64,000 nucleotides of DNA. Origin: Bdellovibrionales bacterium. Its GTDB lineage: Bacteria; Bdellovibrionota; Bdellovibrionia; Bdellovibrionales; UBA1609. Position numbers and translations under genes: made by a program. Under the pieces are notes generated by a model that was not told where the DNA came from, ran no database searches, and saw only the letters and a list, made by a program, of their open reading frames with translations. This document shows, in pieces, positions 37,720 to 54,289 of the stretch. The DNA is taken from contig DAHVQG010000007.1 of assembly GCA_027317865.1 (NCBI GenBank), forward strand, positions 32,001-96,000, given 5' to 3'. How positions within the stretch are numbered: the first letter of the stretch is position 1; each line of letters starts with the position of its first letter.

Positions 37720-39091
37720 GCCAAAGTTTTTTGCACCCCAGTTGAATTCGTTAGCCGTATTTGTATCGATACTGCTGACATTTTTGTTTGCGCCAAGGGT
37801 TGTTTTGGCGGCGCAAGTAGCGAAATCAGCAACATCCGTGGTGCACGTGAGTGCAACGCCTGCCAAAACGCAGCCGACGTGCGTACTTGAAACAAAATTA
37901 AATGACGATATTGGCCCGGCGACGCTTGATCTTATTCAACGCGCCAAAAATAGGGCTCTTCAACATCACTGCGGATCTGTTCTGCTGCTCGTGAACACGC
38001 CTGGCGGCAACATGCAAACTACCCGGCAAATTGTTGAAGAGATTCTCAATTCGCCGGTACCATTTTTGTGTTTTGTATACCCTCCCGGAGGTCATGCTGG
38101 CAGCGCGGGCGCCATTATTCTTCAAAGTTGTCATTTATCTGGTGCGGCCCCCGGTACTAATATCGGCGCTTCGACGCCGATTGAAGGGACAGGCGCGAAT
38201 ATCCCGAGTGACTTAAGAAGAAAAATTATAAACGACACGGTGGCCTGGGTGACTTCGCTTGCGCGAATGCGGGGTCACAATGCTCATTTCGCTAAAGAAA
38301 TGATTGTAAAAGCAAAATCAGTGAGTGCTGAAGATGCATTGAAACTGAAGGCCATCGATTTCGTAGGTGATACTCCGCAAGAGTTTCTGAAGTTTGCAAA
38401 CGGCCACACGGTTGAACTGACCAATCATCAAAGTGTGACGTTGCATCCTGGTAAAATCATAGTTTTTCATCACGATTTGCGTTTCAAACTAATGAATCTT
38501 TTGACCAATCCTCAACTGGCTTACCTCATGTTTATGGGTAGCCTCGTACTTCTTTATTTTGAAATCACCCATCCCGGCCTTATGGCGCCGGGTGTTTTGG
38601 GCGGGCTGGGCCTTATCATTTCACTCATTGCGCTTCAGATGATGAACGTGACGTGGGGAGCCGTATTTTTAATTCTTTTCGGCCTGGGCCTTCTCATCAG
38701 CGAAGCTTTTTTGCCAACTTTCGGAATTGTCGGTTTCGGTGGGATCGTGTCATTTTTTATCGGTAGTCTTTTTCTTTTCGACTACGGAACTTCGGGATTT
38801 TTTCTCCCGCTTAAATTTATTTTACCCACGGTTATATTGTTGGGTGCGTTACTGTCAGGAATTGCCTATTTAGCGTTTTCAAGCCGTAAACGCAAAAAGG
38901 CAAAAGAAGCGGGCTTTGACTCAATTGACGGTAGGCAAGTGAAAGTGACTCAAACGCAAGGTGACGGTCGCAGCGGTTTTGTCCTTATGGATGGCGAACT
39001 GTGGCGTTTCGAAAGCGATGAACCGTTGACTGTGGGCCAGCAAGTTCTAATTATAAGCCATAAAGGCTTCACACTAAAAGTCAGGAGATAA
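37709..39091 (+). CDS. nfeD: NfeD-family membrane-bound serine protease (ClpP-like domain, TM region, OB domain)
   Basis: NTPGG, AGSAGA, APGTNIGAS.P, C-terminal GELWR; directly upstream of an SPFH gene. Confidence 0.9.
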   Translation: MKNEPKFFAPQLNSLAVFVSILLTFLFAPRVVLAAQVAKSATSVVHVSATPAKTQPTCVLETKLNDDIGPATLDLIQRAKNRALQHHCGSVLLLVNTPGGNMQTTRQIVEEILNSPVPFLCFVYPPGGHAGSAGAIILQSCHLSGAAPGTNIGASTPIEGTGANIPSDLRRKIINDTVAWVTSLARMRGHNAHFAKEMIVKAKSVSAEDALKLKAIDFVGDTPQEFLKFANGHTVELTNHQSVTLHPGKIIVFHHDLRFKLMNLLTNPQLAYLMFMGSLVLLYFEITHPGLMAPGVLGGLGLIISLIALQMMNVTWGAVFLILFGLGLLISEAFLPTFGIVGFGGIVSFFIGSLFLFDYGTSGFFLPLKFILPTVILLGALLSGIAYLAFSSRKRKKAKEAGFDSIDGRQVKVTQTQGDGRSGFVLMDGELWRFESDEPLTVGQQVLIISHKGFTLKVRR

Positions 39092-41217: not shown

Positions 41218-42513
41218 TTAATGGGAAGTTTTTCCGAGAAGTGCTTCGGCGACAGACTCTATAGTGGCGTCGACCGGGGTCGATCGCGACGGCCGTTCAA
41301 ATAGCTGAGCCAGGTTTGGCGGCATTTCGATTTCACCGCCGATAAGCGGGTTGACGATTTCAGAAAACTTTGCCGGATGTGCCGTGGACACGATGATCCA
41401 GTGCGGAGTTTTCATTCGCTCTCGGGCTACGGCGGCCGTTGCTGTATGCGGGCACCAAATTTCACCCCAATCGGCTTTGCCGTGGCGAATGGCATGTCGG
41501 ATTTCATCATCTAGGACGCTAACAGCGGACGAAATTTTTTTGAGTTCATGAACATCTGGATGCAAATCACTTAAACGCTCAAAGTTGCTTGGAGCGCCGA
41601 CATCCATCGCATTTGCGAGCGTCCGAATTGAGGGCCGTGGCTCGTATCTACCGGTTCGATAAAAATTTGAAAGCGTGGTATTGGCATTTGTCGCTATTGT
41701 GATTTCGCGAATGGGCATACCGATTTTTCGCGCCCAAAATGCCGCCACGGCATCGCCAAGATTACCCGTTGGGATAATAAGCCCCGGCGCGTGACCCGTT
41801 TTCTGTTGGTACCAAATAGCCGCCGCCGAATGATAAATCATTTGCGGCAATAGCCGTCCGATATTGATACTGTTAGCGGAAGTGAAACGAAATTTCGAAG
41901 CAAGACCGAACTGCTCACGCACTTGTGCATCGCCAAGAATTGTTTTGACCAGGCGCTGGCAATCGTCAAACGAGCCGTTCACTTCTAGACTTAAAACATT
42001 ATCGCTCCAGCATGTCAGTTGTTGTCGTTGTAGCGGAGAAACTCCATTGCGCGGAAAAAGCACAACGGCGCGAAATTTTTTAAATTCATCGAAGGCGGAG
42101 GCGACCGCTCCGCCGGTGTCGCCAGAAGTTGCAACTAAAATTGTTCGCTGCTCAGAAATTTTGAGATTCATAAACCGTGCAAGAAAGCGAGCCGCAATAT
42201 CTTTAAACGCGGCCGTCGGGCCATGAAACAGCTCCAAAACGGCAGTGTCGTTTTTCAAATAACGAAGCGGAATTTGAAAATCATAGGCTGATTTTAAAAG
42301 CGAATGCAGTTCGTGGGCGGTGAGTTCATCGCGCAGAAAGGGGCTTAAGATCTTTTGTGCGATTCCGATGAATGAATGATCCGTGATTTCGCCGGGTTGA
42401 ATCAGCGGCCAGGATTCAGGTACGTAAAGCCCCTGATCGACCGCTAACCCCCGCTCGACCGCTTCAAGAAATGAAACGCGATCTGCGGCATGACGTGTAC
42501 TAATGTATTTCAT
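41218..42513 (-). CDS. thrC: Threonine synthase
   Basis: ELFHGPT.AFKD, ATSGDTG, SANSINIGRL, TAHPAKF. Confidence 0.96.
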   Translation of the reverse strand: MKYISTRHAADRVSFLEAVERGLAVDQGLYVPESWPLIQPGEITDHSFIGIAQKILSPFLRDELTAHELHSLLKSAYDFQIPLRYLKNDTAVLELFHGPTAAFKDIAARFLARFMNLKISEQRTILVATSGDTGGAVASAFDEFKKFRAVVLFPRNGVSPLQRQQLTCWSDNVLSLEVNGSFDDCQRLVKTILGDAQVREQFGLASKFRFTSANSINIGRLLPQMIYHSAAAIWYQQKTGHAPGLIIPTGNLGDAVAAFWARKIGMPIREITIATNANTTLSNFYRTGRYEPRPSIRTLANAMDVGAPSNFERLSDLHPDVHELKKISSAVSVLDDEIRHAIRHGKADWGEIWCPHTATAAVARERMKTPHWIIVSTAHPAKFSEIVNPLIGGEIEMPPNLAQLFERPSRSTPVDATIESVAEALLGKTSH

Positions 42514-43496
42514 TTTTCACCTTTGAACCCTCGCGCGCCAGGAGCAGGCAATCGAGAAATATAGGCAGTTGAGGTCACACCAGCTATTTTAAACCGCTTT
42601 TGAATTTCTTGTGCGATTTTTTGCCCGGCGGTACGGGATTTGGCTAAAGCAAAAACACTTGGGCCACTACCTGATATTGAAAAGCCAAGGCATCCGGGTA
42701 TTGCCATTGCCGCATTCTTGACGTCTTGAAATGCGGGTATCAAATGCTCTCGTTGCGGCTCAATAATTTGATCACGAAGCGAAGCGGAAATTAAACCAAA
42801 ATTACTTGTCATGCAACCGAGCACGAAACCGGCAAGAAGCGAAGACTGCTCGACGTAGGATTTTAGTGAAATTTCAGGGCGTAAAATTTTTCGCGCCTGC
42901 TTCGTTTCAACCTGCACATCCGGATGAACCAAAACGCAAACAATCCCGCTCGGAATCGAAATGTGAAACACACTCTTTGCCAATGAAGTTGAAAATTGCG
43001 AAGACGAAAGCGTAAGGCCGCCGTATAAACTGGGAGCAACGTTGTCGGGATGGGCCGAGCCCGCGGCGATTCGTTCGCCTTCGAGTGCATAGGTAAAAAG
43101 TTGCTCCATCGGAATTGGATTCTGCACGCGAGACTTTAAACGTCGAAAGATTCCGGCTGCTGCGACAACGGCGGCAACGGCCGACGCAGCTGAACCGCCC
43201 ATACCTGAACCAAGCGGAATACCTTTATGTATGCGGACGCGAAATCCGTAGCTCAAGTTGAGGTCTTTCTGCATGGCCAATAGCGCGGCGGTTGCCGTAT
43301 TTTGTTTGGGATCGGCGGGTATTTTGTTTTCAGTAAAAATACTCTCGATCAAAATTTCGCGTGTGCCCGAGTTGAGCGTTAATTCGACCGTGTCGCCAAC
43401 GCCCTCGAGCGCGAGCCCCAAAACGTCGAAGCCTACTCCCACATTGCCGACTGAAGCCGGGGCAAACGCCCGAATGGTTAAATCGCGTGATTTCAT
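42510..43496 (-). CDS. thrB: Homoserine kinase
   Basis: APAS.GNVGVGFDVLG, GHMP motif PLGSGMGGSAAS, H.DNVAP, ISGSGPS. Confidence 0.95.
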   Translation of the reverse strand: MKSRDLTIRAFAPASVGNVGVGFDVLGLALEGVGDTVELTLNSGTREILIESIFTENKIPADPKQNTATAALLAMQKDLNLSYGFRVRIHKGIPLGSGMGGSAASAVAAVVAAAGIFRRLKSRVQNPIPMEQLFTYALEGERIAAGSAHPDNVAPSLYGGLTLSSSQFSTSLAKSVFHISIPSGIVCVLVHPDVQVETKQARKILRPEISLKSYVEQSSLLAGFVLGCMTSNFGLISASLRDQIIEPQREHLIPAFQDVKNAAMAIPGCLGFSISGSGPSVFALAKSRTAGQKIAQEIQKRFKIAGVTSTAYISRLPAPGARGFKGEK

Positions 43497-45973
43497 GCTC
43501 GTGCTCCAAGGTGGCGTGCCAGTCGCAAAAGATCAGCAAATACTCCCGCGGCTGTCACCTCAGGACCGGCTCCGGGCCCTTGAACAATAAGCGGTTGTTT
43601 GTCGTATCGCTTGGTGCGAAATGCGATCATGTTGTCGCTGCCCGTGACGCGCGCAAACGGGTGTGTTTTTTCAATGACACGCAGTTCAGCCGTTGCGCGA
43701 CTTTCTCTTACATCTAGCGACCCTACAAAACGGAGTACGCCGCCGGTTTCTTGGGCCAGTTTTCGGCGGCTCGAAATTTCAGCATCGAATTCAGAAAGAC
43801 GCGCCATGAATTCCTCGACGTGGGCCACCGAACGGAGCGCGTCGGGTACTAGCGATTTCACTTTCACATTATCCAATTCAATTTTGATATTTGCTTCGCG
43901 TCCGAGAATGACAATCTTTCTTGCGACGTCCAAGCCGCTTAGGTCATCGCGCGGATCGGGCTCGGTGTAACCTAATTGTTTGGCCTCAGCCACAATTTCT
44001 GAAAAACTTGCCGTGCCCAATTGATATTTAGAAAAAATGTATGACAAAGTACCGGAGAGCAGACCCTCAATCGAGATCAATTCGTCGCCGGTTTGTAAAA
44101 GATCGCGCAATGTGGAGATAACAGGAAGACCCGCGCCCACTGTGGCTTCATACATAAAACTGCGATTACTAGCTAAAATCGATTTTTGTATTTCGGAGTA
44201 GCGGGACCAACTACCCGCTCCGGCCTTTTTGTTCGGCGTGATGACGTGAATACCGGCACGCAGCCATTGCGAATAATAATCAGCGACGTCGTCCGAAGCC
44301 GAGCAATCGACAATCACGGCATGAGGCAAGTGATCCGCATGAACGTGGGCCACGAATTGTTCAAAATCGGCCGGCAACTCACGTGCGTCGGTAAAATTTA
44401 TTTCATCTGCGAGCCGCATCGTTTTGGAGTTCGTCACGGCGCGCACGCGAAAATCGGTGTTGAATTGGCTTCGAAGTGTTTGGCCACGCTCCCGTAGCTG
44501 CCGCAAAAACGCTTGGCCGATGGAGCCGGTGCCGACGACCCCAACCGATAAGGTGAAGTCCGAAAGATAAAATGCCGCGTGGGTCGATCGCAGTGCACGA
44601 ATTGAATCCGCTTCGTCAATGACCGCCGAAATGTTCCGCTCCGATGAACCTTGGGCTATTGCGCGAACATTGACGCCGGCATGACTAAGGGCTGAAAAAA
44701 ATCTTGCCGAAACGCCTTGCTTTTTTACCATTCCGTCACCGACGAGTGCGACGATGCTGCACGAACGAGTAACGGAAATTGTTTGAATGGCTCCGTGGCG
44801 CAACTCCGAATCGAATTCTTTTTCTAAAGTGGATTTTGCGCGGTTAACTTGATCGGCTGAAACCGCGACACAAATCGAATGTTCGGAGCTTGCTTGCGAT
44901 ATCAAAATGACGCTGACGCCGGCTTCACGTAAGGCGCCAAAAAGTCGTTGGGCAATCCCGGGCACGCCAATCATTCCAGTGCCTTCGACATTGACCAGGG
45001 CTATGTGGTCAACCGTGGTGAACCCGCGCGCGCCGGCCGAATTTGTAGTTTTGTGAATGACTGTTCCAGGTTGGTTGGGTCGAAATGTATTTTTGATCCA
45101 AATCGGAATTTGCAAATCGATGGCCGGAGCCATCGTCCGTGGGTGAATGACTTTCGCGCCAAAATAAGCAAGCTCAACGGCCTCTTCGTATGACAGTTCA
45201 TCGAGTCTTCGCGCTTCACTGACCTTTCGTGGATCGGCGCTGTACACGCCGTCAACATCGGTCCATATTACGATTTGCTTGGCTTTTATGAGTCGGCCAA
45301 AAATAGACGCCGAATAATCACTGCCGTTTCGTTTGAGTGTGGTGGGTACCCCTTCGGCGGTTGAGGCGATAAATCCAGTGACCACCATTCGTTCGCTCAA
45401 ACCGGCAAGACGATCGAATCGAACTTGCGATTCTTGCCAATCGATTTGGGGCCCCGTTTCGCTGTGGGTAACGACTAGGATTTTTCGCGCATCGACCCAA
45501 CAGGGATTAATATCGCGTTGTCTAGACCCCCATGCGGCCGCCAAAATACGCGACGACCAAAGTTCGCCATAGCCTGAAACGAGATCGAGCGTCGAGTCCG
45601 GTAAATGCTTTGCGAGCCAAACACCGCGTAAAATATCACCCAAGTCTTTAAGATCGCTTTCGAATATCTTTGTGAAATTGGCTAAATCGTTGCCATTTAG
45701 CATCCGCGCACTGGTCACACGGTGCAATTCCGCGATTTTGTTTAAACCCGTCTCAAATTGAGAATTTTGTTGGGAAGCGAATTGGGCGGTGTTTATTAAT
45801 TGATCAGTCACGCCGGACATAGCCGATACTACAACGACGAGTTTTTCGTTTCGCCCGGCTCGCAAATGCTCGGCCGTCAAAATATCGAGGACCTGGTTAA
45901 AAGCATCGACCGAGCCGACGCTTGTACCACCAAATTTGTGGACTGTAGAGAAGCCGTTTACGAGTGACGAAAT
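43493..45973 (-). CDS. thrA: Bifunctional aspartokinase/homoserine dehydrogenase I (proposed ATT start)
   Basis: KFGGTSV (upstream of the ORF-track start), VVVSAM, GSDYSA, TDVDGV, two ACT domains, GTGSIG, NKK, EPDPRDDLSG.DVARK, GAGPEVTA. Confidence 0.93.
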   Translation of the reverse strand: MSSLVNGFSTVHKFGGTSVGSVDAFNQVLDILTAEHLRAGRNEKLVVVVSAMSGVTDQLINTAQFASQQNSQFETGLNKIAELHRVTSARMLNGNDLANFTKIFESDLKDLGDILRGVWLAKHLPDSTLDLVSGYGELWSSRILAAAWGSRQRDINPCWVDARKILVVTHSETGPQIDWQESQVRFDRLAGLSERMVVTGFIASTAEGVPTTLKRNGSDYSASIFGRLIKAKQIVIWTDVDGVYSADPRKVSEARRLDELSYEEAVELAYFGAKVIHPRTMAPAIDLQIPIWIKNTFRPNQPGTVIHKTTNSAGARGFTTVDHIALVNVEGTGMIGVPGIAQRLFGALREAGVSVILISQASSEHSICVAVSADQVNRAKSTLEKEFDSELRHGAIQTISVTRSCSIVALVGDGMVKKQGVSARFFSALSHAGVNVRAIAQGSSERNISAVIDEADSIRALRSTHAAFYLSDFTLSVGVVGTGSIGQAFLRQLRERGQTLRSQFNTDFRVRAVTNSKTMRLADEINFTDARELPADFEQFVAHVHADHLPHAVIVDCSASDDVADYYSQWLRAGIHVITPNKKAGAGSWSRYSEIQKSILASNRSFMYEATVGAGLPVISTLRDLLQTGDELISIEGLLSGTLSYIFSKYQLGTASFSEIVAEAKQLGYTEPDPRDDLSGLDVARKIVILGREANIKIELDNVKVKSLVPDALRSVAHVEEFMARLSEFDAEISSRRKLAQETGGVLRFVGSLDVRESRATAELRVIEKTHPFARVTGSDNMIAFRTKRYDKQPLIVQGPGAGPEVTAAGVFADLLRLARHLGARA

Positions 45974-47128
45974 GTGTCCCTCCTCGGGAAGTTAGACACT
46001 TTTACAAAATGTCCAAAGTCTAGACGGTTTTTCGGTTTTTGCGAAGTAAATTGAAGACTTGGCTTCGATACAATGGCTCGGCACGGGACTTGTACAAGTG
46101 AAGGGTATGGGAGACCCGCAATTAGAGGATGAAACAGGCGAGTCCCCCTAAGCGAGGGAGTTATGAAAGGAAGAAGTCGAAAGCCACAGAGCTTAAAAGT
46201 AGTAAGATTCGCAGTTGTCGCACTGGCAATTGCTAGTCTTGCGGCATTTACGACGGCTTGTTCAAAGGGCGTAGGGAGTTCGAATAATAGTAATAGTAAC
46301 AACAATGGTAATACTGGCAGCAGCGGCACCGTTGTTTCGACAACTGGTGCTCAATCTCCGACACAAACGGTTTTAAAAGGAACAGGCGGCGGTCAAGCCC
46401 CTTTAACTTTTACTAGCCAAACGGCACTCGATCAATACGCGGGCTGGAGCCCCAATTCACCAATGAATGGTGCTATCGGCGTAAACCTTGTGAAATTGGC
46501 CACTCTTAGTAATGGTGCCGGTGGTTACGACTACGAATTTGGCGGAGCTGTTACCATTGCCTTCACCGACGGCGCAAATACCTACTATGATACTTTTAGC
46601 TCGCACTTACAGGGCGGCCCCAACACAGTGAATTCAGACGTGCAAAATAACCGATACAATTTGATCTCGGTGCTATATCCGGCGTCAGGTTCATATCCAG
46701 GTAAGCTGCCGGCCTATCATGGATTTTTTCAAGGCACCACGTACTGCATAATGGGCAATGGCTCGTACTCCTATGCATTGTCTCCTGGTGAAACTTGCTA
46801 CGGCGAAACCTTCGGTGGAGCGGTAATTCTCGTTATGAATCAAATGGGATTCAACGCCGACGGTGAAGGTCCCACGACGGCAAGTGGTTCGGTTTGGTTT
46901 TACAATTTTACGACGGGTTACGGTGCGGCGCCATTACCCGGTACGAGCTGCTGGTTTATTACGCTTGGCCCCTATCAATGCGGTTCATTCTTTAACGGCG
47001 GCGATTCGATTCAAACAAAAAGTTCGCTCTATCCGACCGTTACAACACCGGCATCGGAGCCGCCTATCACGTATACGGAATTGGGCACGTTCACGGGTTT
47101 GAATTTAAACGAAGCTTTGAACGGACAA
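45964..47128 (+). repeat. Copy 1 of a diverged ~1.17-kb duplication (promoter region plus lipoprotein gene)
   Basis: Colinear with 53111-54280 from GTGAC...CCCTCCTCGGGAAGTTAGACA to GAAGCTTTGAACGGACAA. Confidence 0.93.
46079..46094 (+). promoter_or_regulatory. Candidate sigma-54 (-24/-12) promoter of the lipoprotein operon
   Basis: CGGCAC-GGGAC-TTGT versus consensus TGGCAC-N5-TTGC. Both boxes are conserved in the island copy (53225-53239) while the spacer has diverged. Confidence 0.5.
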
Positions 47129-47137
47129 TTACAATAA
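46163..47137 (+). CDS. Orphan Gly/Thr/Asn-rich lipoprotein (paralog A)
   Basis: GAGGGAG RBS, lipobox-like TTAC, low-complexity linker, four further Cys. Confidence 0.85.
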   Translation: MKGRSRKPQSLKVVRFAVVALAIASLAAFTTACSKGVGSSNNSNSNNNGNTGSSGTVVSTTGAQSPTQTVLKGTGGGQAPLTFTSQTALDQYAGWSPNSPMNGAIGVNLVKLATLSNGAGGYDYEFGGAVTIAFTDGANTYYDTFSSHLQGGPNTVNSDVQNNRYNLISVLYPASGSYPGKLPAYHGFFQGTTYCIMGNGSYSYALSPGETCYGETFGGAVILVMNQMGFNADGEGPTTASGSVWFYNFTTGYGAAPLPGTSCWFITLGPYQCGSFFNGGDSIQTKSSLYPTVTTPASEPPITYTELGTFTGLNLNEALNGQLQ

Positions 47138-53110: not shown

Positions 53111-54280
53111 GTGACAAAATGCGTCCCTCCTCGGGAAGTTAGACATTTTTATAAAACGTCCAAAGCTTAGACGGTTTTGGATTTTTACGAAGCAAATTGA
53201 AGACTTGGTGTCGACGTAACGGGTCGGCACGTGGTTTGTACAGGTTAAAGGTATGGGAGACCCGCAATTTGAGGAAGAAATAGGCGGGTCGCCCTAAGCG
53301 AGGGCGTTATGAAAGAACAAAGCCGAAAGACGCTGAGCTTAAAGCTAGCGGGATTCGCGGTTGTCGCATTAGCGATTGCTAGCCTTGCGGCATTTACGAC
53401 AGCTTGTTCAAAAAGTGTGGGGGGCGCGAATAATAGCAATAATAATGGAGCCGCCGATCCTACCTCGCCGACGTCAACGACTGTAGTCGTACCGACGCAA
53501 ACGGTTTTGGACGGAACCGGCGGGGCTCAAGCTCCGTTAACTTTGAACAGCCTAACGGCACTTAATGAGTACCTAGTAGGTGGGAGCGCGGCGAATCTAG
53601 ATGCCGTAAGCGCAGCCGTCGGCGTGAACCTTGTGAAACTGGCCACACTCAGCAACGGTGCGGGCGGTTATGACTACGAATTTGGCGGAGCCGTTACCAT
53701 TGCATTTACCGGCATCGACGGCGGCGGCCCTACGTATGTTGAAGATTACAACTCACACATGCAGGGTAATCCGAACACCGTTAATTCAGATGTACAAAAC
53801 AATGAATATAATTTGGTTTCCGTGCAATATCCGGCTTCAGGTTCATATCCAGGTCAATTGCCGGCCTATCATGGATTTTTTCAGAGCCTCACCTACTGCA
53901 TAATGGGTAATGGCTCATCTACATATGCCTTGTCTCCCGGTCAACCATGTGACGGCGAAATGGTCGGCAGCGCGGTTATTCTCGTCATGGACCAAATGGG
54001 ATTTAACGCAGACGGCGAGGGTGCTACGACAGCAAGCGGCTCCGTATGGTTTTACAATTTCACGACGGGTAACGGTGCCGCACCATTGCCCGACACGAGT
54101 TGCTGGTTTAGCACGCTCGTCCCCTATCAATGCGGTTCATTCTTCAACGGCGGTGATTCGATCCAAACGAAGAGTTCGCTCTACCCGACAGTAACGTATC
54201 TTCCCGATGGCTCAACAGTCACTTACACGGAACTTGGCACATTCACCGGCATGAATTTAAACGAAGCTTTGAACGGACAA
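53111..54280 (+). repeat. Copy 2 of the ~1.17-kb duplication
   Basis: Colinear with 45964-47128, including about 200 bp of upstream non-coding DNA. Confidence 0.93.
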
Positions 54281-54289
54281 CTGCCATGA
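53309..54289 (+). CDS. Orphan lipoprotein (paralog B of 46163..47137)
   Basis: Long identical blocks (GVNLVKLATLSNGAGGYDYEFGGAVTIAFT; PYQCGSFFNGGDSIQTKSSLYPTVT) alternate with divergent segments. Confidence 0.88.
   Translation: MKEQSRKTLSLKLAGFAVVALAIASLAAFTTACSKSVGGANNSNNNGAADPTSPTSTTVVVPTQTVLDGTGGAQAPLTLNSLTALNEYLVGGSAANLDAVSAAVGVNLVKLATLSNGAGGYDYEFGGAVTIAFTGIDGGGPTYVEDYNSHMQGNPNTVNSDVQNNEYNLVSVQYPASGSYPGQLPAYHGFFQSLTYCIMGNGSSTYALSPGQPCDGEMVGSAVILVMDQMGFNADGEGATTASGSVWFYNFTTGNGAAPLPDTSCWFSTLVPYQCGSFFNGGDSIQTKSSLYPTVTYLPDGSTVTYTELGTFTGMNLNEALNGQLP

Follow-up and report, generated by a model that had tools for sequence, protein, structure and literature searches.

In Escherichia coli the genes confirmed to initiate translation at AUU are, in the part of the source that lists them, infC and pcnB only (10.1101/063800). 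The AUU of infC is a cis element of the autocontrol of initiation factor 3 (IF3), and the non-canonical starts of the Deinococcus genes dnaA (ATC), rpsL (CTG) and infC (ATA) were obtained by N-terminal proteomics, as given in those sections of a second report that deal with these genes (PMC2830850). In Staphylococcus aureus, AUU and AUA starts placed behind an extended Shine-Dalgarno (SD) sequence gave a reporter output of about 10% of that of AUG, and the cases cvfC1 (AUU), ccpN and citZ (AUA) were mapped by Ribo-Ret, according to the passages of that study which describe them (PMC13009471). Here we analyzed the start of thrA, the gene of a bifunctional aspartokinase/homoserine dehydrogenase, in a window of 64,000 nucleotides (the whole stretch of DNA studied, bases 32001-96000 of contig C40) from the genome of an uncultured Bdellovibrionales bacterium, hereafter G000 (2.65 Mb, 99% estimated completeness). 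We argue that translation of this thrA very probably starts at the ATT codon 45973-45971 of the minus strand, behind the sequence GAGGAGG. A limited search of the literature found no paper on an ATT start of thrA (aspartokinase), which is not proof that none is in print.

The thrA start region

The product of 43493..45973 (minus strand, stop codon included; 826 aa when counted from ATT) is a ThrA-type bifunctional aspartokinase/homoserine dehydrogenase carrying all domains of the type in one chain. Pfam matches were AA_kinase (PF00696, residues 10-295), NAD_binding_3 (PF03447, 481-608) and Homoserine_dh (PF00742, 617-816), along with the ACT families PF22468, PF13840 and PF01842, each in two stretches; all the domains are complete and the frame of 826 codons is intact. 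Read from 45994, the minus strand runs TAA CTT CCC GAG GAG GGA CAC ATT TCG TCA CTC GTA AAC GGC and continues with TTC TCT ACA GTC CAC AAA TTT GGT GGT ACA AGC, the last six codons of which (codons 13-18 of the gene; 45920..45937) encode KFGGTS, the nucleotide-binding motif of the aspartokinase domain. The thrA frame is closed upstream by the in-frame TAA at 45992..45994 and is open from there down to its stop at 43493. Between this TAA and KFGGTS there is no in-frame ATG, GTG, TTG or CTG, and the sole codon one base away from ATG is the proposed start, ATT (AUU in the message; 45971..45973). The SD sequence GAGGAGG lies at 45979..45985 and ends 5 nt before the ATT, and the 3' end of the 16S rRNA of G000 reads ...GGATCACCTCCTTTCT, with the tail CACCTCCTTTCT. 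A distance of 5 nt is within the working range of this genome, since, ahead of open frames of 150 codons or more, the distances between GGAGG and ATG cluster at 4-9 nt, with counts of 21, 19, 35, 18, 16 and 18 from 4 to 9 nt. The original prediction, made from the letters of the window, had placed the ATT at 45973, 5 nt after GAGGAGG and opening 826 aa, and had set KFGGTS upstream of the first canonical start, TTG 45880, with no canonical start between the stop and the motif; the sequence agrees, and all its coordinates are right.

thrA in related genomes

We searched for thrA among 41 genomes. G005 (69% identity) and G006 (67%) carry close bifunctional genes, and more distant ones, at 48-53%, occur in G004, G009, G029, G002, G001 and G015. 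In G005 the region reads TAG ... GAG GAG GGC CCC ATT TCG TCA CTC ... AAA TTT GGC GGC, the start site being GAGGAGGGCCCC ATT TCG TCA C, again with no in-frame ATG, GTG, TTG or CTG between the in-frame stop and KFGGTS. In G006 it reads TTG GAG AGC CCT ATT TCG TCA CCC ... GCA ATG ACG TCA ATC GTG CAT AAA TTT, with the start site GGAGAGCCCT ATT TCG TCA C and an SD that is weaker but kept. Alignment of the thrA 5' regions of relatives, a check that had been proposed along with the ATT start, thus found SD, ATT and TCGTCAC retained in both sister species, and across the aligned intergenic sequences they form the conserved block GGAG.G.C..ATTT[C/T]GTCAC. The ATT is the single near-cognate codon upstream of KFGGTS in G000 and the single one after the SD in G005. 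In G004, which belongs to the same genus and has a ThrA of 53% identity, GAGGGCCGTATC ATG TCG aligns with GAGGGACAC ATT TCG of G000, and ordinary ATG starts were seen in five of the six more distant genes, a count that leaves out the G001 locus L008. The 9-12 codons between ATT TCG TCA and VHKFGG are poorly conserved and their lengths differ by 9 nt, that is, in frame, which gives weak support to translation of this stretch. A scan of the contigs of 185,579 species returned 73 related loci, two of them above 60% identity; these two are no new relatives, because they cover the same contig ranges as the loci of G005 and G006. When metagenomes were scanned with the N-terminal 200 aa of ThrA, one distant locus of 39% identity was added.

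The first in-frame ATG, GTG or TTG of the gene is TTG 45880 (45878..45880), 31 codons after the ATT. It is the codon that automatic gene callers use and at which a mechanical list of open reading frames (ORFs) opens thrA, giving 795 aa. If TTG were the start, the product would be made without KFGGTS, its aspartokinase half would be dead or on the way to decay, and the homoserine dehydrogenase half alone would be of use; in keeping with this, a separate monofunctional aspartokinase-like gene, an open frame of 413 aa on contig C42, is present elsewhere in G000. The codons ahead of the TTG speak against such a start. Over the 19 codons that run from KFGGTS up to the TTG, the pairwise differences among G000, G005 and G006 at codon positions 1/2/3 were 2/0/12, 4/3/11 and 2/3/13, so that 12, 11 and 13 third-position changes stand against 0-4 at positions 1 and 2, and the changed codons were synonymous versus non-synonymous in ratios of 10/3, 8/4 and 10/4. 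These codons are under purifying selection on the protein and are therefore translated, which puts initiation upstream of KFGGTS. Furthermore, KFGGTSVGSV is identical in all three species, the open frame spans exactly the stretch that is needed upstream, and on reading the sequence no SD-like purine run was seen directly before TTG 45880. TTG 45880 is thus not the real start of thrA, and a ThrA with a dead kinase half is very improbable.

Among the 40 best homologues in the protein database, KFGG[TS]S follows the called start by 6-36 residues in 37 cases. The other three have calls that leave the motif out, namely P0001 (the window's own cluster, 795 aa), P0002 (800 aa), which we took as the gene call of G005, and P0003 (795 aa), which comes from a further relative and is 67% identical to the query ThrA. 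In a quick maximum-likelihood tree of 31 rows, each trimmed to start at KFGG, the ATT group formed one clade with an SH-aLRT support of 100, branching as G000,(G006,(G005,P0003)) with inner supports of 99 and 98; its sister clade in this tree consists of 16 proteins, all with canonical starts. The ATT is present in all three clade members for which DNA was at hand (G000, G005 and G006). It may be noted that the thrA genes of these three species are closer to the 16 database proteins (56-60%) than to those of G004 and G002 of the same genus (50-53%), which may mean that within the genus the gene was replaced or the thr operon transferred.

Correctness of the ATT letters

To the argument that the ATT is a mistake in the letters, the original prediction had replied with a diverged duplicate of the region that keeps it, and had named an ATG in sequencing data as what would speak against the proposed start. 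We compared Logan contigs of four sequencing runs over 45600-46400, namely X2, X3 and X4 of study P1 and X5 of study P2, leaving out X1 as the possible source run; the comparison uses contigs and not raw reads, so that rare variants would not show. Contigs of all four runs cover 45971-45973 and have the ATT. Those of X2 (record 1) and X4 (record 4) span the entire 45600-46400, that of X3 (record 3) covers 45961-46400, and that of X5 (record 7) covers 45901-46076 with 0 other letters; between 45852 and 46009 no difference was listed in the contigs of any of the four runs. The ATT is no sequencing error: the same letters stand in the contigs of four runs from two studies, in the two sister species and in the duplicate.

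An error of assembly or sequencing can be considered together with a recent inactivating mutation of an ATG, which would make thrA a fresh pseudogene. A single G-to-T change is enough to turn ATG into ATT, and G004 has ATG TCG at the aligned site. Against both versions, the letters are the same in the runs just described, in G005 and G006 at 67-69% identity, and in the duplicate at 85% identity, and the frame of 826 codons is intact, with complete Pfam domains. We regard this explanation as scarcely credible.

Other candidate non-canonical starts in the genome

We screened G000 for codons lying 4-10 nt after GGAGG or AGGAG, between an upstream stop and the first canonical start, with no in-frame canonical start in the next 10 codons and at least 150 open codons downstream. 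Of 9049 candidate codons 57 were preceded by an SD, among them ATT in 4 of 241 instances, ATA in 3 of 137 and ATC in 2 of 156. One of the ATC matches is the frameshift site of prfB (L125; G000:C37:116222-117400, minus strand), whose downstream frame matches PCRF and RF-1. Its sequence AGGAGG TAT CTT TGA C is that of the classic +1 frameshift site, which the screen thus recovered as its own positive control.

Of the four ATT matches, one is thrA and one infC, and the remaining two fall within a single ORF of contig C22. The infC gene (L105; G000:C39, about 38059-38740, minus strand) has AAGGAG, a spacing of 7 nt and ATT AAA CCA; its start region reads TAA CAA AGG AGA CCA CTT ATT AAA CCA, and the first canonical codon comes 22 codons later. 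The codon aligned with this ATT is ATC in G006 and G004 and ATA in G001, and the G002 locus ends before the start. The C22 gene (L106; G000:C22:279338-280021, minus strand) encodes a secreted-looking protein of 228 aa without a Pfam family and has AAAGGAGG, a spacing of 4 nt and ATT AAA. This ATT, the first of the two sites in the ORF, sits exactly where four paralogues in G005 and G006 carry ATG AAA, and the first canonical start, 49 codons on, would remove the signal-peptide-like N-terminus. Thus infC and the C22 gene also appear to start at ATT, which together with thrA would make at least three genes with AUU in G000; AUU starts are rare in this genome, as they are elsewhere. As a separate observation, the C22 gene is 99% identical to G006:C4:279988-280671 (L115), while thrA is 67% identical between G000 and G006. 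The gene may have been transferred recently, it may lie on a mobile stretch that the two genomes share, or one contig may have been binned into both. Behind an SD there are three more codons that may serve as non-canonical starts: an ATA before a protein with a signal-peptide-like N-terminus and weak Lcl_C and FGE-sulfatase matches (L108; G000:C10:10442-11050, plus strand), an ATA before an 804-aa protein with a sub-threshold PilZ match (L107; G000:C4:75400-77811, minus strand), and a CTG before a 627-aa Polysacc_synt_2 protein (L109; G000:C9:16183-18063, minus strand).

The intergenic region and its duplicate

The region 45974..46162 is common to thrA and to a divergent lipoprotein gene, and its alignment shows blocks that are identical in the three species. 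In the spacer 45995-46162 these include TCAATTTACTTCGCAAAA and GTACAAG..CGTGCCGAG, at a ThrA identity of 67-69%, and also a repeated GTCTAAACTT / GTCTAACTT, about 30 nt apart and identical in the three species. The 15-mer GAGGAGGGACNCATT, which ends in the ATT, occurs twice in the window, both times on the minus strand, at 45971-45985 and 53118-53132; its chance expectation is 0.01, and two matches were obtained in none of 100 shuffles. The second occurrence, GAGGAGGGAC.CATT, belongs to a duplicate of the intergenic region (53111..53315, minus strand) that is not followed by a thrA and reads GAGGAGGGACGC ATT TTG TCA C at 53118-53132. The duplication is 85% identical over about 206 nt (query positions 7-212) and runs into a paralogous lipoprotein-like gene, 53309-54289 as against 46163-47137, the two proteins (324 and 326 aa, without a Pfam family) being 73% identical. 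On the thrA side the similarity ends right after ATTT[C/T]GTCAC (ATTTTGTCAC), a few bases past the thrA ATT, and the frame of the duplicate at this place reads ATT TTG TCA CGT TTT GCA TGA. The duplicated stretch as a whole, 53111-54289 as compared with 45961-47137, was found in G000 only, and not in G005 (76% complete) or G006 (99% complete). The diverged duplicate of the original prediction is therefore real and does keep the ATT, but what it copies is the lipoprotein gene together with the intergenic region, not thrA. The retention of the ATT in it means that the ATT predates the duplication, and is old rather than an error.

We looked for signals that might act ahead of thrA. An Rfam scan of 45700-46400 with E up to 10 gave SECIS_4 alone, whose 15.1 bits, with a gathering score of 38, are at chance level, and no riboswitch, T-box or Thr leader in that interval. 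A consensus scan of 45850-46250 gave 0 promoter-like and 0 terminator-like sites, and on reading the thrA spacer no ORF of a Thr/Ile-rich leader was seen. That there is no thrL-type leader, as had been claimed from the letters, is thus borne out by the two scans and by the reading of the spacer. RNAalifold on the three species gave 19 pairs, 0 of them with a compensatory change. Single-fold z-scores of the initiation regions were -1.10, 0.00 and -0.73 at the three thrA loci and -3.03 at the duplicate, where the value stems from a hairpin in its own unique part. A conserved structure at the thrA start is accordingly not claimed, there being no covariation in the three species and ordinary fold z-scores at the thrA loci. 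A sigma-54 promoter for the lipoprotein gene, suggested by a plus-strand block of the form GGCAC-N5-TTGTA, was dropped as no Sigma54_DBD (PF04552) was found in G000, which is 99% complete; the loose GGCAC-N5-TTGTA-type pattern occurs 38 times in the genome.

It can be asked whether the block of SD, ATT and TCGTCAC in fact serves the control of the divergent gene pair as a DNA or RNA element, with ThrA started by coupling to a short upstream frame or at a codon that is not near-cognate. The block survives in a duplicate that lacks thrA, other intergenic blocks such as TCAATTTACTTCGCAAAA are likewise identical in the three species, and in G000 a short out-of-frame ORF, GTG 45999 to TAA 45958, overlaps the ATT. 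This ORF was rejected as a source of coupling, for it has no SD and its start is not conserved, G000 having a GTG, G005 an ATG within the SD and G006 neither; nor was a slippery site leading into the thrA frame seen on reading the sequences. There is no other near-cognate codon in G000, or after the SD in G005, from which ThrA could be started, and the searches described above gave no convincing RNA family match and no covarying structure. As for survival in the duplicate, that copy is 85% identical overall, so that the nine of ten retained bases of ATTTCGTCAC are what drift alone would leave. We consider a control element in place of a start to be improbable.

Initiation at the ATT itself was the claim of the original prediction, and it is upheld by several lines of evidence: the contigs of the runs, the sister species, the constraint on the codons before TTG 45880, the alignment with the ATG of G004, the SD spacing, and the apparent ATT starts of infC and the C22 gene. 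The following points weigh against it. G006 has, besides the ATT, a TTG that precedes it by 4 codons and an in-frame ATG that precedes KFGGTS by 6; because of these the ATT need not be the start in G006, which weakens the case that it is conserved as a start. The three species share the ten bases ATTTCGTCAC without a change at synonymous sites, nine of ten are kept in the thrA-less duplicate, and part of this conservation could belong to a DNA-level element of the divergent control region. The comparison covers three species with DNA, which are kin and not independent of one another. Finally, ATT behind an SD (4/241) is only modestly above the background of the screen (57/9049). With regard to G006, parsimony suggests that the ATT-only state would be ancestral to the clade and the ATG of G006 a later gain, one gain being required as against two losses. 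Taken together, we hold a start at the ATT to be very likely.

Discussion

thrA opens a thrA-thrB-thrC operon on the minus strand, in which thrB (homoserine kinase of the GHMP family by Pfam; 42510..43496) overlaps the thrA stop with its ATG as ATGA, and thrC (threonine synthase by Pfam; 41218..42513) overlaps the thrB stop in the same manner. We propose that GAGGAGG would pair with the CCUCCUU end of the 16S rRNA and so bring the AUU that lies 5 nt further on into the P site, where initiator tRNA would read it as formylmethionine to give an enzyme of 826 aa that retains KFGGTS. Going by the work on E. coli and S. aureus, AUU would initiate at a fraction of the rate of AUG and be discriminated against by IF3, and the strong SD may offset part of this weakness. 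The weak start would then cap the output of ThrA and, through the ATGA overlaps, possibly that of ThrB and ThrC too. By analogy, the AUU should lower the synthesis of ThrA and make it sensitive to IF3.

One can go further and suppose that in this Bdellovibrionota clade the AUU, the maximal SD and the invariant ATTTCGTCAC context form a selected regulatory device, which would stand in for the missing thrL attenuator and, as at infC, let the coupled output of thrABC follow the growth state and the activity of IF3. In that case the weak start would have persisted from before the species split, to ThrA identities of 67-69%, as something useful and not merely tolerated, and G006 would be partly reverting by the gain of a downstream ATG. 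We put this forward tentatively and think it rather unlikely.

E. coli thrLABC, which is controlled by attenuation at the Thr leader, has the same operon content and order of thrA, thrB and thrC. It differs from the present locus in its leader, for here no Thr/Ile-rich leader ORF, no terminator-like site and no convincing Rfam match were found. If the operon described here is held back at all, this happens at the start codon and not by attenuation. With E. coli infC and pcnB, thrA would share the use of AUU as the sole start behind an SD in an ordinary gene, kept in relatives and, by analogy, expected to be weak and sensitive to IF3; unlike them, it is the first enzyme of an amino-acid operon and not a factor of translation or RNA metabolism, and no autoregulatory loop is evident.

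The S. aureus genes cvfC1, ccpN and citZ, as those parts of the study that treat them describe these cases, also combine a weak start with a strong or extended SD, are conserved, and are either the first gene of an operon (cvfC1) or metabolic genes. They are other genes in another phylum, and their starts were mapped by Ribo-Ret, whereas that of thrA is inferred from comparison. The likeness to Deinococcus dnaA, rpsL and infC, to the extent that the quoted sections present them, lies in a conserved housekeeping gene whose N-terminus extends upstream of any canonical start and is recognised by conserved residues that would otherwise be lost; the Deinococcus starts are founded on labelled N-terminal peptides, the thrA start on the comparison of sequences.

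The mechanism proposed here is already known from infC and pcnB and no long-standing question is opened by it; the value of the finding lies in the correction of annotation. Gene callers that admit ATG, GTG and TTG only cut 31 residues, including the ATP-binding KFGGTS loop, from ThrA, and in the public clusters that hold this thrA and its two nearest relatives the called proteins are 795-800 aa long and lack KFGGTS, so that pathway reconstructions could misjudge the protein. On the biological side, an operon for the synthesis of an amino acid would join the few genes for which a conserved AUU start is on record.

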